Notes: a model not told the origin generated them from the letters alone. A DNA stretch of 64,000 bases from an uncultured bacterium (GCA_903934015.1 CAIZMI010000015.1:424-64423), one strand, 5' to 3'; counted from the first letter of the stretch, positions 5,297 through 58,674 are shown. Program-made: numbers and translations.

Positions 5297-7075
5297 ATGT
5301 TTTTGTTGTGTTATCATATGATGATGATTCAGCAACAAGATAAAAAAACAACAAATGAGCCAATTAAGCCACCCGTTGTGAATAATTCTACTCCTCAAGC
5401 GAAGGTGTTTTCTGATATTGTTCCGGAAGCTGAAAAAAGTCTTTTGATAAAACCGAACGACCAGCTTTTGAATGTAAATGATCAGCCTAAAGAAAATATT
5501 GAGGAAGTGAAGCAAGTAAACGATTTTAATGTACTAACAGCCGCGCCAGTAGTTGTCGCTAATAATGATGGCGCCAACTCGATATTGCTGGGAATGGAAG
5601 ATAAAAAACCATTTAATTGGTTTTTTATTTTTACGCCTATTCTTTTATTGACATTCGCTGGTTTTGCCGTGGCCTTTTATGGTGGATTTTTGCCGTGGCC
5701 TTTTTGGGGTTTAACACAGCAACAGGTTATAGAAAAAATGTTTGATACGATTCCAAGTATTCGTTCTGGTCGATATGGGATAGACATTAATTTTAAATCT
5801 GAAACGAGGCAATCGGGAGTAAAAGGATATGATTTATCGTCGATGTTGGGTGGTGTTGGAAATAATGTTGTTGCAACCGGGGCGGTGGCAAGAGATGAAG
5901 CACGTTTTAACGCCATCAGCGGTATAGAGAATGCATTAGATTTATATAAAAAAGAGAATGGTAAATATCCGCAGTTTCTGAATGATATAAGAATAAATAA
6001 CCCGGAATTATTACTGGATCCAGCTACAAAAAATCAGTATGGTTATAGACAAGAGAAAGGTGGTACCGATTTTACGTTGCATGTGCAGATGGAAACCAAT
6101 CAGGGAATTAACAGTTATCGTACTGCTGTCTTAGTAATTCCGTCCGCTACTTTGCAAACAAACGAAGACAAGTTGGCGGTTGTGCATGCCGATACGCCAA
6201 AAATAAAAAAACAAAGTATTGTTTCTGTTGTTGACGGGGTAAAACCGGCTTATGATCCGACAATTGTTCTTCAAAATTTACCATCAGAAATTGATGCCAG
6301 CCTTCGTTTTGCAGGCTTGGCGCAGTTGGAGAATTCAAATGGCGATGCGTTAGTTGATATTGATGGAAGTTTAAAATTAAGTGGGATGAGTTTTTCTGCC
6401 GGATTTGGTGTAATAAAGAAGGGTGGTATGACATATGGAAAAGTGAAGGAAGCACCTTCCCTTGGTTTTTTTGATTTGGCGGGGATTAAGAATAAATGGA
6501 TAAAACTGGAAATGGCTGATTTGAATAAGGTTGGGTTTGTTAATGCGGAGCAGAAACTGCGACAAGAAAATCAAACAAAATATTTGTTAATTGCAAAAAA
6601 GTATTTGCAAATTCTTAAAGAAGAAAAGGTGTTAAATGTTATAAAGGAGTTGCCAAAAGAAAAAAATAAAGATGGAACTTTCTATCGTTATTCAGTAAGT
6701 ATTGATAGTGATAAAACGGCTGTAATATATGAGCGGTTAAACGAAGAAATCAAGAACCAATTTGGTATTAATTACGATATCATCAGCGATGACTTTATTG
6801 CTTATATGCGTGGCCCAAAAGCGGCTACTGTTAACAAGCTTTCACAACAAAACTCGCAAATGGAAATTTGGATTGATGCGAAGAATTTTTGGCCATACAA
6901 ATTTATCTCAAATTCAGTATTTGTTCCACCGGATAATATTGAAAAATTAAAAGAAAAGCAGTATCGAGCGCAGGTGTCTTTTGATCTTTTTGACGTAAAT
7001 AAGCCGGTTGTGATTGAAGCTCCGGTTGACTCGATTTCGATCAGTGATGCTGAAAAATTGGTAGTTGGGAAATAA
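5297..7075 (+). CDS. Hypothetical membrane protein with a type II secretion / type IV pilin-like (GspG-like) domain
   Basis: One TM segment (WFFIFTPILLLTFAGFAVAFYGG) is followed by ARDEARFNAISGIENALDLYKKENGKYPQFL...LLLDPATKNQYGYRQEKGGTDFTLHVQME, which resembles the pseudopilin fold. There is no canonical prepilin cleavage motif. Start is uncertain (5297 or 5318). Confidence 0.5.
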   Translation: MFLLCYHMMMIQQQDKKTTNEPIKPPVVNNSTPQAKVFSDIVPEAEKSLLIKPNDQLLNVNDQPKENIEEVKQVNDFNVLTAAPVVVANNDGANSILLGMEDKKPFNWFFIFTPILLLTFAGFAVAFYGGFLPWPFWGLTQQQVIEKMFDTIPSIRSGRYGIDINFKSETRQSGVKGYDLSSMLGGVGNNVVATGAVARDEARFNAISGIENALDLYKKENGKYPQFLNDIRINNPELLLDPATKNQYGYRQEKGGTDFTLHVQMETNQGINSYRTAVLVIPSATLQTNEDKLAVVHADTPKIKKQSIVSVVDGVKPAYDPTIVLQNLPSEIDASLRFAGLAQLENSNGDALVDIDGSLKLSGMSFSAGFGVIKKGGMTYGKVKEAPSLGFFDLAGIKNKWIKLEMADLNKVGFVNAEQKLRQENQTKYLLIAKKYLQILKEEKVLNVIKELPKEKNKDGTFYRYSVSIDSDKTAVIYERLNEEIKNQFGINYDIISDDFIAYMRGPKAATVNKLSQQNSQMEIWIDAKNFWPYKFISNSVFVPPDNIEKLKEKQYRAQVSFDLFDVNKPVVIEAPVDSISISDAEKLVVGK

Positions 7076-10937: not shown

Positions 10938-12422
10938 ATGAATCTCGAACCAGTAATAGGCCTTGAAATCCACGTTCATCTCAACACCCAGTCAAAAATG
11001 TTCTGCGGGTGTAAGAACGTGTCTGAAGCGGAGGAGGCGAATCGTTTTGTTTGCCCAATTTGTATGGGTTTTCCGGGACAACTTCCGGTACTCAATGGAA
11101 AAGCGGTGGAGTGGGCAATCAAGGTGGGGCTGGCCTTAAACTGCAAAATTGCCTCACATACGACATTTTCCCGCAAAAGCTACTTCTATCCCGATTTGCC
11201 AAAAGGTTATCAGATTTCGCAATATGACGAGCCAATTTGCTATGAAGGAAAAGTAAAAGTATTTGTGAGCAATGAGGAAAAGGAAATTGGGATTACACGT
11301 GCGCACATGGAAGAAGATGCGGCGAAGAATATTCATGACGGTGGAACACTGGTTGATTACACACGCTCCGGGACCCCGTTGGTAGAAATTGTGACTGAAC
11401 CGGACATTAAAACACCGCAAGAAGCAAAAATCTTTTTGGAAGACCTGCAACGCACCATTCGTTATATTGGTGTATCTAATGCGGATATGGAAAATGGCGA
11501 TCTTCGTGTTGACGCGAATATTTCGATGCGCGAAATAGGTGGGAAATTGAATCCCAAAACGGAGTGTAAAAATCTTAATTCTTTTAAGGCGGTGGAGCGT
11601 GCGTTAACTTATGAAATTGCGCGTCAGACCGAACTTTGGCAACAGGGAAATCCGCCAACAAAACAAAGCACACGTGGTTGGAACGATGCGACGCAAGAAA
11701 CAGTCGAACAGCGCGTGAAAGAAGACGAAGCTGATTATCGATATTTTCCGGAACCGGATATACCGCCACTAAAAATAGACGAAGAATTAATTCAACGAAT
11801 GCGTGAAGCATTACCCGAATTACCGCATGAAAAAGAAGCGCGTTTTATCAGTCAGTTCCAACTCCCAGATGAGCAAGTTAGAATAATGGTGGAAGACAGA
11901 ATGTTGGCCTCATATACTGAAAATGTTTTTTCAGAAATTTTGGCATGGAATGAACAGCGTTCAGATGTAGAAAAACGAGACAGTGTCCGTTTGTACAAGT
12001 TAGCCGCGAACTATTTATTGGGTGATTTTCGAAACATTCTTGCTGAAGAAAAAACTGATTTTAGTCATACAAAAATAAGTCCGGAAAATTTTGCGGAATT
12101 GATTGTGATGTTGCATCGCGCGGAAGTGAATCGTAATGCTATGCCGGAAGTTTTTCGCATTATGCAAAAAACAGGCGGTGACCCATCGAATATTGTTGCC
12201 GATAAAGGTTTGGGGCAAGTGAGCGATGATGATCAATTGCGCCGGATAGTTCAAGACATGTTGAACGCTAATCCTGCGGAAGTGGATAAGGCCCGTGCCG
12301 GTAAGGTGCAAGTAGTTCAATTTTTGATGGGTAAAGTGATGGCAGAAACAAAAGGTCGCGCCAATCCCCAAAAAGTACAGGAAATGATTCGCGTTGAATT
12401 AGGATTGACGATTAATGATTGA
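10938..12422 (+). CDS. gatB: Asp-tRNA(Asn)/Glu-tRNA(Gln) amidotransferase subunit B
   Basis: MNLEPVIGLEIHVHLNTQSKMFCGC... plus a C-terminal GatB/YqeY domain. Confidence 0.9.
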   Translation: MNLEPVIGLEIHVHLNTQSKMFCGCKNVSEAEEANRFVCPICMGFPGQLPVLNGKAVEWAIKVGLALNCKIASHTTFSRKSYFYPDLPKGYQISQYDEPICYEGKVKVFVSNEEKEIGITRAHMEEDAAKNIHDGGTLVDYTRSGTPLVEIVTEPDIKTPQEAKIFLEDLQRTIRYIGVSNADMENGDLRVDANISMREIGGKLNPKTECKNLNSFKAVERALTYEIARQTELWQQGNPPTKQSTRGWNDATQETVEQRVKEDEADYRYFPEPDIPPLKIDEELIQRMREALPELPHEKEARFISQFQLPDEQVRIMVEDRMLASYTENVFSEILAWNEQRSDVEKRDSVRLYKLAANYLLGDFRNILAEEKTDFSHTKISPENFAELIVMLHRAEVNRNAMPEVFRIMQKTGGDPSNIVADKGLGQVSDDDQLRRIVQDMLNANPAEVDKARAGKVQVVQFLMGKVMAETKGRANPQKVQEMIRVELGLTIND

Positions 12423-12535
12423 TGAATCGACGGCGCGAAACGTTCGTCCTTCATAAATCATAAATCGTATATCATAATCACGTCTCTCTCTTGCCAAAAA
12501 TCCGTATCCGTGATATTTAAATATGACGGTTGTTA
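12418..12535 (+). promoter_or_regulatory. ~115-bp conserved upstream block (copy 1) containing a palindromic operator-like site, AT-rich direct repeats and a TTGCCA-17-TATTTA promoter
   Basis: 114/115 nt identical to 13437..13553. TTGCCA is at 12491..12496 and TATTTA at 12514..12519. The block overlaps the gatB stop codon. Confidence 0.65.
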
Positions 12536-12581
12536 TTGGGCACTGTGTTTGAAACGAGTCCTTTTTCATGGGAGATAGGTC

Positions 12582-13343
12582 ATGTCGGACGAGAACAAGT
12601 ATGCTATCGTAAAGAATCTTTACGACAAAGGCAACTACATTTTGGCTTTACGTCAGTTGGAGACCTATGCGACTGTTGACGGTTTTGCCAACGAGGATTT
12701 TGCTTGGGCTGGTTGGTGTAACTTTCGGTTAGGAAATCTGGCAGAGGCAGTCGAAGTGCTGCATCGTGTCACTGATAATAACCAAAGAGCGTTGCTTTGC
12801 AAAGCATATGTGTTAGCGGATTGCCGGTATGAAAGTGTCAGCAAAACGGAAGTACATGAGACTCTGGCAAGGATTAGTGATTTTGTTGTGATTGCACGAG
12901 CTTTCATTGATTTTGCACGTGATCCGAACAATGTCTTCTGGCGAGATAACAACACGATGTTGGCTCACGTTTCTGTGTTAGCTCCGGATGAGGGGGTCGA
13001 AGTTGGCCACCTGTTCCGTGATGCCTCGCGGGTATGTGCGGATAATGCAACTACAAGTGCCGATTTCTTTATTGCTCTTGGGCTACTTGAAATCGCAATC
13101 ATGAAGTACGGCATCGCAGACGAAAACGCGCACCACCGGGCCGAAGCGCTGTTTTGGAAGAGTAAGGTGATGGAAGTCGTCGGTGACGTTCCTTCGGCTT
13201 ACCAAGTTGCAAATAAATCAGCTAAGTTGTGGTTGATAGCAATTCAGCATGATCCGCAAAATGAGGGATATAGGGATTGTCGTGTAGGTGTCATTGGACA
13301 CGCTTTACGGCTCGAACGACTCGTACAGCAAGCAACTAAGTGA
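12582..13343 (+). CDS. Hypothetical protein, tandem paralog A (possibly helical-repeat/TPR-like)
   Basis: SD ggaga 8 nt upstream. N-terminus MSDENKYA. ~30-35% identical by eye to the next gene. A terminator follows at 13383..13412. Confidence 0.65.
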   Translation: MSDENKYAIVKNLYDKGNYILALRQLETYATVDGFANEDFAWAGWCNFRLGNLAEAVEVLHRVTDNNQRALLCKAYVLADCRYESVSKTEVHETLARISDFVVIARAFIDFARDPNNVFWRDNNTMLAHVSVLAPDEGVEVGHLFRDASRVCADNATTSADFFIALGLLEIAIMKYGIADENAHHRAEALFWKSKVMEVVGDVPSAYQVANKSAKLWLIAIQHDPQNEGYRDCRVGVIGHALRLERLVQQATK

Positions 13344-13382
13344 GGGCGGTATCGCTCTGTCCACAAGATCGACATTTAGTCA

Positions 13383-13412
13383 CCATCAGCAACCAACGCT
13401 GGTGGTTTTTTA
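13383..13412 (+). terminator. Rho-independent terminator
   Basis: caccatcagcaaccaacgctggtgg followed by ttttttat. Confidence 0.55.
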
Positions 13413-13436
13413 TATGAATGACGAATAATGAATGAT

Positions 13437-13553
13437 GATTGATGAATCGACGGCGCGAAACATTCGTCCTTCATAAATCATAAATCGTATATCATAATCA
13501 CGTCTCTCTCTTGCCAAAAATCCGTATCCGTGATATTTAAATATGACGGTTGT
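13437..13553 (+). promoter_or_regulatory. ~115-bp conserved upstream block (copy 2)
   Basis: Near-identical to 12418..12535. TTGCCA at 13511..13516 and TATTTA at 13534..13539. Confidence 0.65.
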
Positions 13554-13600
13554 TTGGATGTTTACGGTCGAAACGTGTTCATTTTCACGGGAGAATAATC

Positions 13601-14368
13601 ATGTCGGACGAGAACAAATTTGCCGAAATCGAACGGCTTTTTAACGAAAAAGATTATGCCGGCGCTTTGTCACAGTTGGAAGTGCTGATGGCCGGTGGTC
13701 AAAATCCAATAAGTGAAGCGCTTGGTTGGGCAGCCTGGTGTCATTATCGACTCGGTCGTTTTACCGAAGCGATGAAAAACGCCGTAGCGGCGGGTGAAGA
13801 CCAGTGGGCATTGTTGTGTAAGTTGTACCTACTGGCGGATTATCGGTATGAATTGTCCGGTAGGGTGTTATGTAGTAATGAATCGGGAAGAATCATTGAC
13901 CGGTTGGCAGTTGCGCGCGCGTTTGTCGATTTTGCGGGTGATCAAAATTACCATTTTTGGAGAAACTATGATCCGATGTTGAATACCCTTCAGGCTATCA
14001 TTGGGCAGGAAGGGGTGGAGGTCGCCAATTTGTTCCGTGACGCGGCGCAGGTTTACATCGGTGACCCGCTGGGTCTTGAAAATGTCGCTATGGCATTGGG
14101 ACTTCTGGAGGTGGCGATGAGTAGGTACAAAATTGATTGTGATGGGAAGGGTAGCCATCACCTAGCCAATCTGTACCGCACGAAATCGGGGATTTTTGAG
14201 AAATTGGGCGATATTCGTGTGGCAGAAGAATGCGCTATTCAAGAAACTGCAGAATGGACCAAGGTCTTGTCTTTGGGCGGGCCGGATGCGGTTTTGGTCA
14301 AATTGAAACGTGATGAGGCTTGGGAAAACTTCGCCAGGCTCAGGAGAACGTCGTCGGTTCCCGCATGA
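13601..14368 (+). CDS. Hypothetical protein, tandem paralog B
   Basis: Start at MSDENKFAEIERL, with SD ggaga upstream. Homologous to 12582..13343 along its whole length (conserved W..W..C..YRLG, ALLCK.Y.LAD.RYE, ARAF.DFA.D, GVEV..LFRDA). A terminator follows at 14381..14410. Confidence 0.65.
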   Translation: MSDENKFAEIERLFNEKDYAGALSQLEVLMAGGQNPISEALGWAAWCHYRLGRFTEAMKNAVAAGEDQWALLCKLYLLADYRYELSGRVLCSNESGRIIDRLAVARAFVDFAGDQNYHFWRNYDPMLNTLQAIIGQEGVEVANLFRDAAQVYIGDPLGLENVAMALGLLEVAMSRYKIDCDGKGSHHLANLYRTKSGIFEKLGDIRVAEECAIQETAEWTKVLSLGGPDAVLVKLKRDEAWENFARLRRTSSVPA

Positions 14369-14380
14369 GGTATTAGTTGT

Positions 14381-14410
14381 AACCGCCAGACGCACTGGTG
14401 GTTTTTTTAT
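14381..14410 (+). terminator. Rho-independent terminator
   Basis: accgccagacgcactggtgg followed by tttttttat. Confidence 0.5.
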
Positions 14411-14584
14411 TTTCGCGAGTACGCGAAAACAATCCCCCATAGCTTTAGCGAAGGAAGGATGCATGCAATTTTAGAGATGATCCTTTAAGTAATCGCGAAA
14501 TAACCGCGTGGGACGTGAGTGCGAAAAACTTATACGTCCTTTATGCGGTTGTTTTTATTCTGACCATGGTCGGACCCTGGTCTA

Positions 14585-15589
14585 TTACCAAGATTTTACC
14601 AATTCAATCGCTTCTTCTTCATTTTCAATCCAGACAATGTTGGGTTCTTTCTTGAGCCAAGTTAATTGTCGTCTTGAGTATTGCCAGTTGGCATTGATAA
14701 CTTTTTGTCTTCCTGCTTCCAACGATTCTTCGCCACGCAGAAATGGAAAAAGTTCGCGGTAGGCGATTGCTTGAAGGCCCGGCGCCTGCTCGCCGTATTG
14801 TTTTATCAGGGTTCTTATTTCTTCTACGAGTCCTAATTCGAGTTGTTTGTCGACGCGCTGAGTGATGAGGTCGCGCAAATTTTCGGGTTGGCGATGGATG
14901 GCGATTTTGAGAATATTAAAATCAGGCGTTGGTGGTAATGCGGTCTCGTGTAGGGGAAATTCATGAATTGCCCCAGCGGACGCGGAACTCGGGAGATTGC
15001 TTCGGCTCGCCTGCGGGCGGCCTCGCAAAGACGACGCATAGTTTGCTATCTCTAAAGCTCGAATTACTCGTCTTGGATTTTTTAAATCAATACGCTCGGC
15101 CAATATCGGATCTTTTTGAAGTAAATCATTCGCCAGATTTTCCACTGGTTGTTTGTTTGCCCATTCTCTAAAAACAAAATCCGGCGGTACTGATGCAAAG
15201 TTCTTCTTCTCGGTAAGTGCGCGAATATAAAAACCCGTTCCACCGATTACAATCGGTAGGTGGTTGTTCTCATGAATTTTCGCGATCACTTTTGTTGCAT
15301 CGTTTACAAAATCCGCTGCCGAATATGGTTGGTTTGGTGTAATTGTATCGATAAGGTAGTGGGGCATTGAATTGTATTCAATCGGTTCAAGTGGCGAACT
15401 GGCAATTTTTCCCCGTGAAACAATTTTGTCCGTGCCAATATTCATGCCAAAATAAACCTGACGCGAGTCGGCAGAAATAATTTCTCCCTGGAATTGCTCG
15501 GCCAACACTAAAGACAATTGGGTCTTGCCTGATGCGGTTGGGCCCATGATTGTTAGGAGTGGTTTTGGGGCTGGTTGATATGTATTCAT
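14585..15589 (-). CDS. miaA: tRNA dimethylallyltransferase (i6A37 synthase), with a ~20-aa S/R/A-rich insertion encoded by a repeat-like segment
   Basis: P-loop MGPTASGKTQLS and SADSRQVYFGMNIGTDK. The segment SSLRGRPQASRSNLPSSASAG at 14993..15037 matches the GC-rich R1 repeat family. Confidence 0.85.
   Translation of the reverse strand: MNTYQPAPKPLLTIMGPTASGKTQLSLVLAEQFQGEIISADSRQVYFGMNIGTDKIVSRGKIASSPLEPIEYNSMPHYLIDTITPNQPYSAADFVNDATKVIAKIHENNHLPIVIGGTGFYIRALTEKKNFASVPPDFVFREWANKQPVENLANDLLQKDPILAERIDLKNPRRVIRALEIANYASSLRGRPQASRSNLPSSASAGAIHEFPLHETALPPTPDFNILKIAIHRQPENLRDLITQRVDKQLELGLVEEIRTLIKQYGEQAPGLQAIAYRELFPFLRGEESLEAGRQKVINANWQYSRRQLTWLKKEPNIVWIENEEEAIELVKSW
14993..15037 (-). repeat. 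Short-form copy of the cgtcgtctttgcgagg...gccgaagcaatctc repeat (R1), located in-frame inside the miaA coding sequence
   Basis: The reverse complement, gcgtcgtctttgcgaggccgcccgcaggcgagccgaagcaatctccc, matches the termini of R1 copies at 22491, 24276, 29552 and 35704. Confidence 0.55.
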
Positions 15590-22490: not shown

Positions 22491-22581
22491 CGTCGTCTTT
22501 GCGAGCCATTGACCATTCGTGAGAATGGGCAAGGCGTGGCAATCTCCAGTGTTGAAAGTTGAAGAGATTTCTTCGCCTCGC
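22491..22581. repeat. GC-rich repeat element R1 (long form, copy A)
   Basis: cgtcgtctttgcgagccattgaccattcgtgagaatgggcaaggcgtggcaatctc...gagatttcttcgcctcgc. It contains an internal inverted repeat (ggcaaggcgtggcaatctc / gagattgcttcgcctcgcc). Related copies lie at 24276, 29552, 14993 and 35704. Confidence 0.75.
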
Positions 22582-24275: not shown

Positions 24276-24381
24276 CGTTGTCTTTGCAAGCCATTGACCA
24301 TTCGTGAGTCCGCCAACTGGCGGAGGGCAAGGCGTGGCAATTTCCCGCGTCGTAATTTTGGTGAGATTGCTTCGCCTCGCC
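24276..24381. repeat. GC-rich repeat element R1 (long form, copy B, with an extra inner hairpin ccgccaactggcgg)
   Basis: gtctttgcaagccattgaccattcgtgag...gggcaaggcgtggcaatttcc...gagattgcttcgcctcgc. Confidence 0.75.
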
Positions 24382-29551: not shown

Positions 29552-29650
29552 CGTCGTCTTTGCAAGCCATCGACCATTCTTTAGAATGGGCGAGGCGTGG
29601 CAATCTCAAAAAAACAAGACGCGGGAGATTGTTTCGCCCACGCACCACAA
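29552..29650. repeat. GC-rich repeat element R1 (long form, copy C)
   Basis: cgtcgtctttgcaagccatcgaccattctttagaatgggcgaggcgtggcaatctc...gagattgtttcgcccacgc. Confidence 0.75.
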
Positions 29651-32318: not shown

Positions 32319-32333
32319 TATTATTAATAATAA

Positions 32334-32512
32334 GGGCTTGATAATTAATAATCGCCTTATCTTATGTCCAATCCATCTCCAAATACAACTGCTTCTCAAT
32401 CAAAAATCTTTCAACGTATGTCAAATACGTCTCAAGATTTTGTTCAATCAAAGACAGTCATCTTTGAAGCGCATTGAACATAATCTTAAAGCGTTTATTA
32501 ATTATCAAGCCC
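32334..32512. repeat. MITE-like ~180-bp element with ~22-bp terminal inverted repeats (R10, copy 1), inserted between rpsB and tsf
   Basis: Left TIR gggcttgataattaataatcgc, right TIR gcgtttattaattatcaagccc. Internal nested inverted repeats (attttgttcaat/attgaacat). Homologous to 54380..54556. Confidence 0.75.
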
Positions 32513-32519
32513 TAAAAAA

Positions 32520-34661: not shown

Positions 34662-34905
34662 CTCGAGATAAGTTTCGCTTCGCGAAACAAAAAAGATGTA
34701 CACAAAACGACTCAACATCCCGTTGAGTCGTTTTGCACAATAATCGAAGAACTCCGAAATATTTGCGTTCGGATGCGCAAAGTTTCGGAGCCCTTCGGGT
34801 GATAACAGGGTTATTGCACAAGAGTTAAAGAACTCCGAAAGATTGCGACAAGAGACGCAAAATTTCGGAGCTACCTTTAGTGTTCGAAGCAAAACTAATT
34901 CAATA
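34662..34905 (+). repeat. tRNA 3'-trailer structured module (copy 1) plus a second tandem sub-module
   Basis: ctcgag-ataa-gtttcgcttcgcgaaac-aaaaaag-atgtacacaaaacgactcaacatcccgttgagtcgttttgcacaa-taatcgaagaactccgaaa[hairpin]tttcggagc. It is then repeated as ttattgcacaagagttaaagaactccgaaag...tttcggagc. Confidence 0.8.
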
Positions 34906-35703: not shown

Positions 35704-35750
35704 AGATTGCTTCGGCACGCTTGCATGCGACCTCGCAAAGACGAACTTTG
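35704..35750. repeat. Short-form copy of GC-rich repeat R1, adjacent to the tRNA-Thr(GGU) 5' end
   Basis: gattgcttcggcacgcttgcatgcgacctcgcaaagacgaac. Confidence 0.55.
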
Positions 35751-38451: not shown

Positions 38452-38600
38452 CTCGAGATTTGTTTCGCCTAGCGAAACTATCAAATGTACACAAAACGAC
38501 TCAACATCCCGTTGAGTCGTTTTGCACAAGAATCGAAGAACTCCGAGATCTCGCGCGCCAGGAGGCGCGGAGTCTCGGAGCTACCAACCACTAATGTATC
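38452..38600 (+). repeat. tRNA 3'-trailer structured module (copy 3)
   Basis: ctcgag-attt-gtttcgcctagcgaaac-tatcaa-atgtacacaaaacgactcaacatcccgttgagtcgttttgcacaa-gaatcgaagaactccgagatctcgcgcgccaggaggcgcggagtctcggagc. Confidence 0.8.
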
Positions 38601-54374: not shown

Positions 54375-54379
54375 CCATA

Positions 54380-54556
54380 GGGTTTGGTAATAAATAAACG
54401 CTCCATCTTATGTCCACTCCATCTCTGACTACAAGCATTTCTCAATCAAAAATCTTTCAACGTACGTACAGTACGTCTCAATATTTTGTTCAATCAAAAC
54501 ACTCGTATTCAGAGCGTATTGAACAAAATATGGAGTGTTTATTTATTACCAAGCCC
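54380..54556. repeat. MITE-like ~180-bp element with TIRs (R10, copy 2)
   Basis: Left TIR gggtttggtaataaataaacgctcc, right TIR ggagtgtttatttattaccaagccc. The internal core ttctcaatcaaaaatctttcaacgta...attttgttcaatcaaa is shared with copy 1. Confidence 0.75.
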
Positions 54557-54704
54557 TAATCTTTTGAACGAGACGCAGTTTCTCTCTCCCGGCAACCTCG
54601 CGCAAGAGCCTTATAAAATTTGTATCACGTCTTTTTTGGCTCGTTTTTTGAGGGTGGTAGGTTTTTTTGTTGATCACAAAAAGGCTGTTGGGCTTTCACG
54701 CTTA

Positions 54705-55670
54705 ATGGAGAAAAATGTTGAAATATTTCTGCCGTTTTTTAATTGGTTCAATATAAAATCGGAGATTCGACAAGAGGTTGTAAATGAATTTAAAAAAACT
54801 CTGGAGGGGTACGGAATGACTGATTTAAGGTCTTTTCATGGTGGTTACGCCGGTCAGGGTTTTTTGCTGTCACGTTTTTTCATGAACCCCGGTGATCCTC
54901 GAATTCTTAAGCAAAATATTCGAAATATGCAACGGGAAATTAATTTGTTGGGGGAGTTAAGAAAGGTTTTTAAGATTGAGCATCCGATCATTTACGTTTT
55001 GCATTGTGGGCGAAGAGAGAAGGGTATTGGAAGGGAAGAGTCAATTCAGGCGACTGTTTCTTCTATTAAGTCGGTAATGGGGGACGCGCTTACTGCTGGA
55101 GTGTGTATTTCACTTGAAAATACCTATTCACATCCGGGTGAAGAAGAAATTGGTACATTTTTTGGAAGTTTAAAAGACGTTCTATCGCAGATTGGCGTGG
55201 AGTGGATTGAGCGTGGTGTGCTTGGTTGTACGCTTGATCCAGCGCATGCCTTGCTGACTTATAGTGGCAATTATGATGCTCTGGAAAAGGATTTGGCGGA
55301 ACTGCTACCTTGGTTTGTGCATATTCATGTTAATCACCCGCGAACAGCAAGAAATAAGACCGGAGAGCTATTTTCGGAGTGGAGCTTGGGAGATGATAAT
55401 CACAATGCGCCGGTAAAAATTCCTAACAGAACACGGTATTGGTCTTTGCTTGGGAAAGTGATTGCCAATAGCAAAATTTCATCATGGCGCACGATTACCT
55501 ATGAAGTAAACTGGGCGGTTCCGATTTTGCGAGCGATCTTTGGCGGGAGTCCGTTGAATGAAGTAAGGGTTGGTTGGGAAGCATTAGAAAGGTTCTGTAA
55601 TCATCCCACGGAAAGGTTTGACGTGCCGGCAATCGAACGCTATATTGACGCGGAACTGGGGAAGAATTAG
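54705..55670 (+). CDS. Xylose-isomerase-like TIM-barrel / AP-endonuclease-family-2-like protein (start uncertain)
   Basis: The ORF-track start at 54486 lies inside the R10 element, so the internal Met (MEKNVEIF) is chosen. Motifs ISLENTYSHPGEE and LDPAHALL resemble the sugar-phosphate isomerase/epimerase fold. Confidence 0.4.
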   Translation: MEKNVEIFLPFFNWFNIKSEIRQEVVNEFKKTLEGYGMTDLRSFHGGYAGQGFLLSRFFMNPGDPRILKQNIRNMQREINLLGELRKVFKIEHPIIYVLHCGRREKGIGREESIQATVSSIKSVMGDALTAGVCISLENTYSHPGEEEIGTFFGSLKDVLSQIGVEWIERGVLGCTLDPAHALLTYSGNYDALEKDLAELLPWFVHIHVNHPRTARNKTGELFSEWSLGDDNHNAPVKIPNRTRYWSLLGKVIANSKISSWRTITYEVNWAVPILRAIFGGSPLNEVRVGWEALERFCNHPTERFDVPAIERYIDAELGKN

Positions 55671-55782
55671 GGCGCATAGCTCAGTGGTAGAGCGTTGCAT
55701 TCACATTGCAAAGGTCGAAGGTTCGCCCACGCACCATAAAGGTGCGGGGCGCCCAGTACCCAACGTGGTACTGGGCGATACC
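55670..55782 (+). pseudogene. Truncated tRNA-Val 5' fragment (nt 1-56) with a 52-nt two-hairpin insertion in the T-loop and no 3' acceptor strand
   Basis: 55670..55725 is identical to the first 56 nt of the tRNA-Val at 55825. It is followed by cccacgcaccataaaggtgcgggg and the perfect 11-bp hairpin cgcccagtacc-caacgt-ggtactgggcg, then atacc and an A-run. Confidence 0.7.
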
Positions 55783-55824: not shown

Positions 55825-55896
55825 GGGCGCATAGCTCAGTGGTAGAGCGTTGCATTCACATTGCAAAGGTCGAAGGTTCGATACCTTCTGCGCCCA
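55825..55896 (+). tRNA. tRNA-Val (anticodon CAC)
   Basis: gggcgcatagctcagtggtagagcgttgcattCACattgcaaaggtcgaaggttcgataccttctgcgccca. Perfect acceptor and T stems. Confidence 0.9.
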
Positions 55897-55912
55897 CTAA
55901 AAAATAATAACC

Positions 55913-56500: not shown

Positions 56501-56560
56501 GTGCTATAATATGCCCATGAACTACAGTCAAATTATCAAGCGCAGTTGGAAAAAATGGAG
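56498..56560 (+). promoter_or_regulatory. Shared promoter / leaderless-start module (copy 1): TGCTATAAT 6-7 nt before ATGAACTAC-GTCAAATTATCAAGCGCAGTTGG
   Basis: Near-identical to 57638..57700. The -10 box ends ~7 nt before the ATG, which predicts a leaderless transcript. Confidence 0.55.
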
Positions 56561-57635
56561 TATTTTATTTGTTGTTTTGTTAATAATTTGTGGTGGTGTT
56601 TTATTAAGTAAGATGAATCAGCAAAGGAATAAGACTAAAGTAGCTGTTCCGGTGCTTATTTATACGCAAGAAATTGAAAGTGCAGAGAATGAATATCTTA
56701 GGCCAACGGTAAATATTATGCGAAAAATGGGTGATGCTAAACCGGAAAAATTGGCTGAGATTGAAGGTAGCGGGTATCCAGAAGTTGGGCTTAGTCCTGA
56801 TAAAAAAGATCTGTTAATCAATCTGGGAAGCAAATTGCAGGTTCTAAACTTAAAAACAAAAGAACTAAGCGATTTATTTATTCCCAAATTACGCGTTGTG
56901 AGCGCGTCATATTCGTCGGATGGGAAGCAATTGTTTATTTGGGATCAAGATTTGACTGACTTTCTTGAAGTTGATAAGTATTTTGTCCATCGGTTTACAT
57001 TGTCAAACCGTAAAGATGAAGTTATTAATCAGGGAAGCACGAATCTATTTGCGGGGAGGGTTTGGCGCGATGATGGAAAAGTGGTTCTGATGAGGCCACT
57101 CGGTAGCGCAGCACACTTGTATTTTTATGATTTAGCAAACAATTCAATTTCACGAACAGTTGGAGATCCAGGATTCGGTGATGTCAGTACAAGCGGAAAA
57201 CGCATGGCGGTCGCGAAAAATACTATTGGGGATGTATGTAATGGGTATGGTGGTGACGCGGTAAACGCATATGATATTATTGATCCTGTTTCTGGTGAAA
57301 TTGTTGGTAGTATTGGTGTCGCCGATAATCATGTGGATGTTGTTGCGTTTTCTCCTGATGATCGGGAAGTTTTGTATTACAGTGAAAAATTATGGGAAAA
57401 TTCAAGTGATTGTGGAAAAAATGCTCAAAAATCATATTTTAAAAAAGACATTTCGACAAATACAATTTCTTCGGTGGCTGATCCAATGCAGATATTGTCG
57501 GCTTGGAACAGCGGTGGTTTTTTATCAACACAGGAAAAAGATCCCGATAGCTCTATGTGGACACTAAAATTTAATAATCAAGCTATTTTAACGTCGGATA
57601 TGGATATAAGAGTAATTGCTGAGTATTATCAGTAA
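56511..57635 (+). CDS. Hypothetical secreted beta-propeller protein (TolB/WD40-like repeats)
   Basis: N-terminus MPMNYSQIIKRSWKKWSILFVVLLIICGGVLLS (signal anchor). Repeats resemble WD40-like beta-propeller. Start may be 56517. Confidence 0.55.
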   Translation: MPMNYSQIIKRSWKKWSILFVVLLIICGGVLLSKMNQQRNKTKVAVPVLIYTQEIESAENEYLRPTVNIMRKMGDAKPEKLAEIEGSGYPEVGLSPDKKDLLINLGSKLQVLNLKTKELSDLFIPKLRVVSASYSSDGKQLFIWDQDLTDFLEVDKYFVHRFTLSNRKDEVINQGSTNLFAGRVWRDDGKVVLMRPLGSAAHLYFYDLANNSISRTVGDPGFGDVSTSGKRMAVAKNTIGDVCNGYGGDAVNAYDIIDPVSGEIVGSIGVADNHVDVVAFSPDDREVLYYSEKLWENSSDCGKNAQKSYFKKDISTNTISSVADPMQILSAWNSGGFLSTQEKDPDSSMWTLKFNNQAILTSDMDIRVIAEYYQ

Positions 57636-57637
57636 AA

Positions 57638-57700
57638 TCTGCTATAATATCCTCATGAACTACGGTCAAATTATCAAGCGCAGTTGGGAGATTCTTAAAA
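57638..57700 (+). promoter_or_regulatory. Shared promoter / leaderless-start module (copy 2)
   Basis: ctgctataatatcctcATGAACTACGGTCAAATTATCAAGCGCAGTTGG. Confidence 0.55.
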
Positions 57701-58674
57701 ACAACAAGTTTCTGTGGGGATTAGGTATTCTTGCGGGGTTGGTTTCGGGGGGTGGTGGGGTGCCCTCGTTTAATTTTCCTTCCAATTTTCAATCTGCTCA
57801 ACCAACACCCGCGACTATACAGACTTGGCCAACAGTCAGTCCGGCAAGTGGTGATGCTAATCTTTCAATGGCAAATGTTGGGCGTGTGCTTGGTGAGGTT
57901 GTGGATAGGAGCGGGGATGCGGTTAAAAGTCCTATTTCAGCAACGACAATTTCAATAATTGTTTTGTGTGTCGTATTTGGAATAATTATTGGCTTAGTTA
58001 TTTTGTATTTTGGTACTTCCGCCCAGGCGGGTTTAATTTTGGCTGTGGATAAGTTGGAAACAACAAGTGAAAAAATGGGCTTTAAAAAGGCGCTTAATGA
58101 GGGGAAAAAGTATTTTTGGCGTATTTTTGGCGCGGGGTTGTTGTACTCGGCTTATGTTCTGATTTTTCTGGTTATCTGCGGGGCGTTGATTGGTATAGCA
58201 ATATTGCTAAATAATACGGTTGCAACCGTTGTGATTATACTGCTTGGCGTAGTTTTGGTTATTGCGTTTTTGGTGTCTTGTCTTTATTTGGTGGTACTTT
58301 ATTTGTTTGTCACTCAAATTATCGTTTTGGAAAATTTGGGTCCGATTGAGGCGCTTAAAAAAGCACACATATTGGTAAAAAACAATTGGCGTGATGTGTT
58401 GATTAGTTGGGTGATAATGATGGGAATTGGCTTTGTGGTTGGACTTGCGCTTGTTCTTGCCCTTTTGATTGTTGGTGCAATTTTGGCGCTTGTCGGTTTT
58501 GGTGTTTATGGATTGACAGGAGTGGTTGGTACGGTAATTTACGGTATCATTTTTGGAATTATTTTGTTTGTTGTGCTGTTGGTTGTTAGAGGTTTTATTA
58601 CGGCATATATGTCGATTTTTACTACTTTGGTATATCGTGCGCTATACTATATTCAAGCACAAAAAGCGGTTTAA
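57655..58674 (+). CDS. Hypothetical polytopic membrane protein
   Basis: N-terminus MNYGQIIKRSWEILK is shared with the upstream gene. About 7 TM helices. Confidence 0.55.
   Translation: MNYGQIIKRSWEILKNNKFLWGLGILAGLVSGGGGVPSFNFPSNFQSAQPTPATIQTWPTVSPASGDANLSMANVGRVLGEVVDRSGDAVKSPISATTISIIVLCVVFGIIIGLVILYFGTSAQAGLILAVDKLETTSEKMGFKKALNEGKKYFWRIFGAGLLYSAYVLIFLVICGALIGIAILLNNTVATVVIILLGVVLVIAFLVSCLYLVVLYLFVTQIIVLENLGPIEALKKAHILVKNNWRDVLISWVIMMGIGFVVGLALVLALLIVGAILALVGFGVYGLTGVVGTVIYGIIFGIILFVVLLVVRGFITAYMSIFTTLVYRALYYIQAQKAV

Follow-up and report, generated by a model that had tools for sequence, protein, structure and literature searches.

Concerted evolution by gene conversion is known from bacterial paralogues such as the duplicated tuf genes and the rRNA operons, and in the surveyed cases protein-coding genes are kept alike along the gene (PMC6053082). 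Here we describe a locus in a 64,000-nt stretch of DNA from an uncultured bacterium (GCA_903934015.1, CAIZMI010000015.1:424-64423; the window hereafter means this whole stretch), in which two tandem genes for tetratricopeptide repeat (TPR) proteins, A and B, lie between gatB and miaA, each behind an almost identical 120-nt upstream block. We read the locus as a lineage-specific tandem duplication whose blocks were homogenised most likely by intrachromosomal gene conversion, and give this reading a probability of roughly 60%. The pattern is concerted evolution confined to the control region; it is local and tidy, and it is not unprecedented. As in the described bacterial cases, the copies are closer to each other within the genome than to the ortholog of another species, the tract is discrete with a sharp end, and the copies stand side by side in direct orientation, an arrangement well suited to RecA-type recombination. 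In contrast to those cases, homogenisation is limited to 120 nt of non-coding DNA while the coding regions have escaped completely, and the pattern is known from one genome.

A second parallel is the erp or 'upstream homology box' family of Borrelia burgdorferi, in which a shared promoter/operator and leader precede diverse bodies; the erp genes encode surface lipoproteins with the corresponding leader, are present in many copies on cp32 prophage plasmids and have BpaB, BpuR and EbfC as regulators (PMC10016077). Both systems place a conserved promoter/operator and first codons ahead of very different bodies, both suggest a recombination history that joined one 5' module to diverse bodies, and in both co-expression is expected from identical control regions. 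Unlike the erp genes, A and B are two chromosomal copies encoding cytoplasmic TPR proteins. With two copies only, no export leader and no prophage context, the locus is not an erp-family member.

With generic TPR scaffolds (designed consensus TPR (CTPR) proteins, LGN, EMC2 and BamD), proteins A and B share a predicted all-alpha solenoid of 13 helices, but they form a small family of their own outside the curated families. The 5' part of each block, here called the H element, recalls another well-known class of sequence. Repetitive extragenic palindromic (REP) sequences and bacterial interspersed mosaic elements (BIMEs) are intergenic palindromes at the 3' ends of bacterial genes. The H element is likewise an imperfect intergenic palindrome found after gene ends (after gatB and after terminator A) and a plausible substrate for unequal recombination. 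It differs in that its arms consist of tandem 7-nt units (GAATGAN / TCATAAA) and extend into the final codons of gatB and, in the relatives, those of miaA as well, and in its low copy number, with no other full copy in the 64 kb.

On this reading, the locus would be a clean case from nature in which recombination has kept two promoter/operator copies identical while the downstream genes diverged past synonymous saturation, and a single-copy relative lets constraint and conversion be separated base by base. It opens no new class of system, and it draws attention to an uncharacterised TPR family of small size, which keeps its synteny in a poorly known bacterial lineage despite exceptional divergence. 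It also carries a caution that identical upstream blocks before divergent paralogues need not imply a large co-regulated effector family.

Near-identical upstream blocks precede strongly diverged genes

The blocks ahead of genes A and B (Table 1) are offset by 1020 nt and match at 119/120 positions, the sole mismatch being G12442 against A13462. An earlier note, made from the sequence alone, had described a tandem duplication of a full unit of upstream block, gene and terminator, with 114 of 115 upstream positions identical; the duplication of the unit and the near-identity hold, whereas the extent of the block had been underestimated. The overlap of the unit boundary with the gatB stop, also proposed there, is borne out, as block A starts 5 nt ahead of the stop codon TGA (12420-12422) and includes the last two codons of gatB and its stop. 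Past the block, identity drops to 5/15 in the following 15 nt and then rises to 81% over 54 nt, a stretch that comprises the end of the 5' untranslated region (UTR), the Shine-Dalgarno sequence GGGAGA and codons 1-7 (MSDENK). Both proteins open with MSDENK, as had been noted.

The two proteins share 39% identity over 220 amino acids (BLASTP, E = 5e-47); in a global alignment identity is 37% for protein and 47.6% for DNA, in good agreement with the divergence to about one third identity that had been claimed. Of the gene length given earlier, about 255-270 amino acids, B lies within the range and A is slightly shorter. Synonymous differences between A and B are saturated (proportion of differing synonymous sites, pS = 0.81), with a non-synonymous divergence (dN) of 0.67. 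The ratio of dN to synonymous divergence (dS), which had been proposed as a check, is undefined for this pair and not informative because of this saturation. Since the synonymous sites of the coding regions are saturated and the blocks match at 119/120, the common ancestor of the blocks must be far younger than that of the genes.

A collapsed or chimeric repeat could in principle produce such identity, and some short contigs do break at the block: that of L004 begins inside block A, and one 3.3-kb contig stops just past gene A. Breaks of this kind are typical at true repeats. The 2.2-kb region is 100% identical in four assemblies (L001-L004) from separate samples and assemblers, and four long contigs from several samples and two assembly styles show both copies identical with unique flanks. 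As the 120-nt repeat is shorter than the k = 141 of the k141 assemblies, unique flanks can span it. The region is also intact in a strain variant (L097/L098), which carries the same two-copy structure. An assembly collapse as the source of the upstream identity, a possibility raised with the original observation, is therefore excluded for practical purposes.

Each block has two parts, the palindromic H element at the 5' side and a predicted promoter with a palindromic -10 region at the 3' side. The core of the H element in block A is the hairpin GACGGCGCGAAACGTTCGTC at 12429-12448, and the palindrome-like sequence GACGGCGCGAAAC(G/A)TTCGTC is present in both blocks (12429-12448 and 13449-13468). 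The outer arms in block A are ATGATTGATGAA and TTCATAAATCAT; the right arm reads TCATAAA, TCATAAA, TCGTATA, TCATAAT (12451-12478), with the CATAAAT repeats CATAAATCATAAATCG at 12452-12467. The palindrome, these repeats and TTGCCA-17-TATTTA are all in the block as first reported. When the block was searched in 40-nt pieces, no third site appeared in the window (0 of 100 shuffles match). No relevant structured-RNA match was obtained from Rfam for 12000-15000 at E<=5, and the RNA fold of block plus UTR was not more stable than shuffles (z = +0.4 and +0.6); the DNA fold of terminator A plus H element was marginally better than shuffles (z = -1.95). Two small open reading frames (ORFs) were rejected as coding candidates: one on the minus strand (12399-12569, 56 amino acids) is not kept in block B or in the related genome L095, and a plus-strand mini-ORF (12415-12456, 13 codons) has no Shine-Dalgarno sequence and differs in length in L095.

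In the 3' part, a sigma-70-type promoter, TTGCCA-17-TGaTATTTA, followed by a 5' UTR of about 55 nt, would stand ahead of each TPR gene. The spacer of the predicted promoter A carries TG at 12511-12512, upstream of the -10, and transcription would start near 12526 for A and 13546 for B. The 22-bp palindrome spanning the -10 may be an operator; it occurs at two sites only in the window, against 0.1 expected. As the promoter/operator sequences are identical, both paralogues should be co-regulated, while their TPR binding surfaces and partners would differ. No sign of a regulon was seen in the 64-kb window, where the block and the 22-bp palindrome occur at these two sites only.

Comparison with relatives separates constraint from recombination

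We compared the locus with four metagenomic genomes, L090, L093, L095 and L005. L090, L095 and L093 (GatB 93%, 87% and 85% identical to that of the window at the amino acid level) each have one TPR gene between gatB and miaA. L005, a short contig that covers the TPR-miaA side but not gatB, is the closest relative by miaA, with 71/77 residues identical in a segment in which L090 has 59/77. The order secE-nusG-L11-L1-tmk-gatB-TPR-miaA-x-thrS-dnaE is the same in the relatives and the window. Given this gatB-TPR-miaA synteny, the TPR gene is a conserved, normally single-copy resident of a housekeeping neighbourhood, and two copies are seen in the window's genome only.

The upstream region of L095 aligns along the whole block, from 7-nt repeats of the GAATGAC type through the CGACGGCGCGAAA hairpin to a right arm of the TCATAAA type, and further over the -35 and -10, the palindrome and a UTR resembling that of A. 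As the block aligns at the orthologous position, it is ancestral to the locus. Equivalent hexamers at 17-nt spacing are found in L095 (TTGCAA-17-TATTAA), L090 (TTGACA-17-TATAAA) and L093 (TTGCAA-17-TATTTT), so that the regulatory nature ascribed to the block in the earlier note gains support from a -35/17-nt/-10 layout at the same place in four related lineages. In L090 the -35 TTGACA sits in the last gatB codons, where the window keeps a relic, TTGACG. The 22-bp palindrome is conserved in L095 as CCGTGATATTAAAATATGACGG, at the orthologous site over the -10.

One explanation of the pattern is purifying selection alone, with the whole 120-nt block constrained since an old duplication. The conserved promoter layout in four lineages, the retained palindrome and the promoter core, which matches L095 at 39/45 positions, would agree with it. 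The block as a whole does not behave in this way. Between A and L095 it matches at 87/119 positions (73%), and conservation is unevenly spread: 87% in the promoter (-35 to about +8), which is 44/44 between A and B, and 49% (20/41) in the right 7-nt repeats, which are 43/43 between A and B. L095 carries in addition a 17-nt hairpin insertion beside these repeats, and the upstream region of L090 is without the H part. The paralogous blocks are thus closer to each other within the genome than to the L095 ortholog. Because the 7-nt-repeat part varies between species yet is identical between the paralogues, selection cannot explain its identity, and constraint as loose as that seen between species cannot give 119/120 within one genome. 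Selection alone is therefore largely refuted and scarcely credible. Where strong selection or gene conversion on the regulatory region had been offered as alternatives, conversion is the best explanation and strong selection alone fails on the 43 nt that are only 49% conserved in L095.

The end of the shared tract carries further information. The tract is discrete and ends abruptly at 12535 amid older divergence, about 8 nt past the predicted transcription start. In the 15 nt past the block, A and B agree at 5/15, and A matches L095 at 11/15 while B does so at 6/15 (12536-12550). This L095-like sequence indicates that A keeps the ancestral UTR, and we take the boundary after the block to be a recombination breakpoint.

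A model of gene conversion seeded in the promoter

These data point to recent recombination at the blocks, most likely gene conversion seeded in the constrained promoter. L095 has H elements on both sides of its TPR gene, the second one past the terminator, and L090 has one downstream of the TPR gene, its upstream H part being absent; in the relatives, H elements lie between the convergent TPR and miaA genes. Unequal crossing-over between direct H elements flanking a single gene would yield a tandem pair with an H element and a promoter ahead of each copy. Under purifying selection the promoter would stay similar enough to keep recombining, which would sustain conversion, and the conversion tract would drag the unconstrained 7-nt-repeat part along with it.

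Several observations weigh against this account. No H element lies downstream of gene B, although crossing-over from H to H predicts one, and the 3' flank of B (terminator B plus about 170 nt) is of another type, common to L005. A one-step unequal crossover fails to reproduce this flank and was rejected, so that additional rearrangements must be assumed. A further point is an 82-nt run (13378-13459) that spans terminator A, the spacer and the left half of the H element and has an exact counterpart in L090 (3346-3427). In 6.7 kb of aligned sequence, the second-longest exact match of the window to L090 has 35 nt, and by our own calculation the longest run expected at 82% identity is about 36 nt. 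At a neutral divergence of about 1, such identity suggests exchange between lineages instead of conversion within the genome only. Extreme constraint on the tract is unlikely because the H elements of L095 differ; a recent short-tract exchange is the simplest explanation suggested, with an unrecognised functional element as the alternative. Moreover, no second two-copy genome was found in word-indexed, GTDB or JGI metagenome searches, and the strain variant, being 99.9% identical, is uninformative on independent recurrence of the pattern. Finally, a consensus promoter scanner did not call TTGCCA-17-TATTTA because the -10 lacks the final T, and the proposed promoter, operator and transcript ends are read from sequence and conservation only.

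The TPR locus is a mosaic among related lineages

Housekeeping genes of the window and L090 differ by a dS of 1.0-1.2 and a dN of 0.04-0.12. Against this baseline, TPR protein A is only 36% identical to its L090 counterpart (dN 0.66, pS 0.77). Compared with the L005 protein (P0002), the first 60 residues of A are 84-87% identical (dS 0.49, dN 0.07), and both dS and dN climb to saturation towards the 3' end. Over its C-terminal third, A most resembles the L090 protein (up to 62% at the amino acid and 75% at the nucleotide level), while its middle is nearest to B. Such a shift of synonymous divergence within one gene indicates that fast protein evolution was not the only process at work and that divergent alleles have recombined. 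The TPR coding regions thus appear to be a recombination-prone, mosaic and unusually divergent part of an otherwise conserved housekeeping neighbourhood.

This mosaic bears on the main rival to gene conversion, a recent duplication of the whole unit or of the block only, after which homologous recombination replaced one coding body by a very divergent allele from a related lineage. Crossovers would then lie in the conserved promoter and terminator, and the block identity would be a relic of the recent duplication and not a sign of continuing conversion. The changing synonymous divergence along a locus that is mosaic among relatives fits this history, as does the 82-nt run, which adjoins a gene only 36% identical to that of L090 and so indicates that short tracts are exchanged. 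Both terminators share CTGGTGGTTTTTT, and terminator types are shuffled, the A type being found in L090 and the B type after the A-like gene of L005. On the other hand, no B-like donor was found in 5.8 billion clustered or 1.84 billion representative proteins, the nearest relative of B is A itself (37%), and trees put B as sister to the pair of A and P0002, as an in-situ paralogue would be. We consider allele replacement unlikely on balance, though well worth keeping in view.

A more speculative idea is that the TPR gene is a recombination cassette, with the H elements and the promoter as portable homology arms. Related uncultivated lineages would use these arms to trade very divergent alleles and short flanking tracts, with occasional stacking in tandem. 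The 82-nt run across genomes, the block-wise coding mosaic and the shuffled terminator types fit this idea, which we nevertheless hold to be rather improbable. If true, a cytoplasmic TPR protein important for the lifestyle of these bacteria, for instance in dealing with phage or host, would be under diversifying selection.

A mobile element similar to miniature inverted-repeat transposable elements (MITEs) or REP sequences, inserted independently upstream of both genes with an outward promoter, would also account for two matching blocks. The palindromic structure with repeat arms recalls such elements, similar 7-nt repeat arrays stand upstream of another gene (46100-46160), TTGACG and TTGCCA bracket the 5' part of block A, and conservation between species is unusual in the 82-nt run. 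Yet the block occupies the orthologous position in L095, so it is not a recent insertion. The window holds no further copy of the block or the hairpin core, the core (a 21-mer) was unmatched in JGI metagenome contigs and the 22-bp palindrome in viral contigs, and no transposase or integrase is nearby. A mobile origin is thus very unlikely.

Proteins A and B belong to a divergent TPR family

Pfam matches of the two proteins to TPR models are below threshold (A, TPR_2 at 19 bits against a cut-off of 27; B, 16 bits), while 22 of 36 relatives match TPR_2, the top match being TPR_16 (E = 7.6e-10). An AlphaFold2 model of A built from 36 relatives shows a solenoid of 13 helices with a predicted local distance difference test score (pLDDT) of 95.9 and a predicted template modelling score (pTM) of 0.89. 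Foldseek returned only generic TPR solenoids, with consensus TPR superhelices, LGN and EMC2 as the top PDB matches, at a probability of 1.0 but with TM-scores of only 0.4-0.6. The TPR-like helical repeat suspected earlier is therefore supported as a predicted TPR solenoid, by AlphaFold2 and Foldseek with Pfam below cut-off; PDB sequence and fold searches gave nothing informative beyond 'TPR'. A signal peptide and membrane segments are missing from both proteins, whose N-termini are hydrophilic and whose maximal 19-residue hydropathy is 1.58 (A) and 1.21 (B). A and B are predicted to be soluble cytoplasmic TPR solenoids. Gene B starts at ATG 13601 rather than at TTG 13550 and retains the conserved family residues WCHYR, HH, S and W.

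An exhaustive profile search of 1.84 billion representative proteins yielded no more than 75 cluster representatives at E<1e-3; most of them are 240-270 amino acids long and stand-alone, with the motifs WCHYR, NA.IRAR, HHRAA.FW.S and W..Q..DP.N. The family is in no curated family, and searches of PADLOC, NCBIfam and PHROGs with the TPR proteins gave no meaningful match. Word-indexed searches with A, B and a 36-sequence profile found only the proteins themselves, P0002 and a few distant members; a GTDB genome scan with the family patterns found no member, and a JGI metagenome scan with protein patterns only L005 again. Three distant members have neighbours of interest: one (L086, 6001-6816) lies between two EPSP-synthase/MurA-type genes, another (L099, 4001-4729) near a Trp-repressor-like gene, a MurA-type gene and mreB, and the third (L101, 1614-2348) directly after murB. 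These cell-wall neighbours are a possible lead to function, no more.

The earlier note had proposed the pattern to be that expected when one regulator controls variable effector, immunity or surface families. The identical promoters are in keeping with this, and so is the divergence of A, which is 36% identical to the L090 protein while GatB is 93% identical. The strain variant, 99.93% identical over 5.7 kb with three single-nucleotide polymorphisms (SNPs), adds that two of the three are non-synonymous and fall in gene A (12813 and 12829; L78V and Y83S), 16 nt or five codons apart. Against the proposal, L090, L093 and L095 each have a single copy at a syntenic position between housekeeping genes, the proteins are without signal peptide or membrane segment and without a match in PADLOC, PHROG or NCBIfam, and the neighbours (tmk, gatB, miaA, thrS) include no toxin, secretion or defence gene. 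The window has only two copies of the promoter, and a third, distant member, which is from the same samples and possibly of another genome, has an unrelated upstream region. With synteny, the missing leader and the lack of defence matches all speaking otherwise, the proposal found no support, and we judge it highly improbable.

Readings as integron attC sites, dif-like sites or a diversity-generating retroelement were dropped on anatomy, without formal test: the genes examined over about 10 kb are housekeeping or uncharacterised ORFs, no core-site motifs were seen, and the divergence spans the whole gene, with indels.

Genes and flanks of the locus

The features of the locus are collected in Table 1.

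Table 1 Positions of genes and control elements at the gatB-TPR-miaA locus, counted from the first letter of the window.
Feature	Position	Strand	Description
gatB	10938-12422	+	Asp/Glu-tRNA amidotransferase subunit B; Pfam GatB_N, GatB_Yqey (identical gene in L001)
Block A	12415-12534	+	120-nt upstream block; orthologous to the L095 upstream region
H element, block A	12415-12478	.	Palindrome with arms of 7-nt repeats; nested hairpin in the fold
Promoter A (predicted)	12491-12519	+	-35 TTGCCA 12491-12496; 17-nt spacer; -10 TATTTA 12514-12519
22-bp palindrome CCGTGATATTTAAATATGACGG	12508-12529	.	Spans the -10; candidate operator
5' UTR of A past the block	12535-12581	+	Shine-Dalgarno GGGAGA 12570-12575
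TPR gene A	12582-13343	+	ORF; 253 amino acids
Terminator A, intrinsic	13382-13412	+	Hairpin and T run
Spacer	13413-13434	+	Further left-arm 7-nt repeats (GAATGAC, GAATAAT, GAATGAT...)
Block B	13435-13554	+	H element 13435-13498; -35 13511-13516; -10 13534-13539; palindrome 13528-13549
5' UTR of B, diverged	13555-13600	+	Shine-Dalgarno GGGAGA 13589-13594
TPR gene B	13601-14368	+	255 amino acids; also called as 255 amino acids in L001-L004
Terminator B, intrinsic	14381-14410	+	Same type follows the A-like gene of L005
miaA	14585-15589	-	tRNA dimethylallyltransferase; Pfam IPPT; convergent; right border of the locus

The spacer of 13413-13434 is identical in L090, where it lies downstream of the single TPR gene. 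In L090 and L095, the right arm of the downstream H element adds to miaA 8 C-terminal codons that are missing from the window and L005; miaA gene calls vary among strains (334, 320 and 310 amino acids). After terminator B, a hairpin motif AATCCCCCATAGCnTTnGCGA...GGATG stands at 14428-14460 within an insertion of about 70 nt that L005 lacks. The same hairpin follows P0079, a distant TPR member from the same samples (L086, about 6890-6920), and may be a small dispersed repeat. As to the host, a GTDB scan with GatB gave 47% identity as the best among the matches listed, to Patescibacteria and miscellaneous metagenome-assembled genomes; on these weak GatB matches, the organism may be called only loosely candidate phyla radiation (CPR)/Patescibacteria-like.

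Other repeats in the window

An array of about eight 7-nt repeats (TTCATTG ... CATTCAT TATTCAT CATTCAC) occupies 46100-46160, just upstream of a gene starting at 46161; its repeat unit is as in the H arms, and it is without the hairpin core. A second adjacent gene pair (56517-57635 and 57655-58674) shares a 48-nt stretch at 94% identity (56502-56549 and 57640-57687), consisting of the -10-like TGCTATAAT, the ATG and the first 12 codons (MNY(S/G)QIIKRSW), while the remaining protein sequences have no detectable similarity. A common 5' end with an unrelated body may thus recur in this genome.

Further repeats are dispersed over the window. An intergenic repeat of about 180 nt, 84% identical, stands before two different genes some 22 kb apart (32333-32515 and 54379-54560). 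Of two short dispersed repeats, CGTCGTCTTTGCGAGCC... is found at 22491-22546, 24276-24331 and 29552-29607, and AGATTGCTTCGGC...CTCGCAAAGACGA at 14994-15034 and 35704-35744; one short dispersed repeat falls within the miaA reading frame. Downstream of tRNA genes, a 65-nt repeat with a terminator-like hairpin, AAAACGACTCAAC...GTTGAGTCGTTTT, occurs in two copies (34696-34760 and 38485-38549) at 97% identity. Finally, 155 nt upstream of tRNA-Val(CAC) (55825-55897) there is a 98%-identical, 60-nt copy of its 5' part (55670-55729), which gives a weaker Rfam tRNA match, is not called by ARAGORN and is probably a truncated tRNA duplicate.

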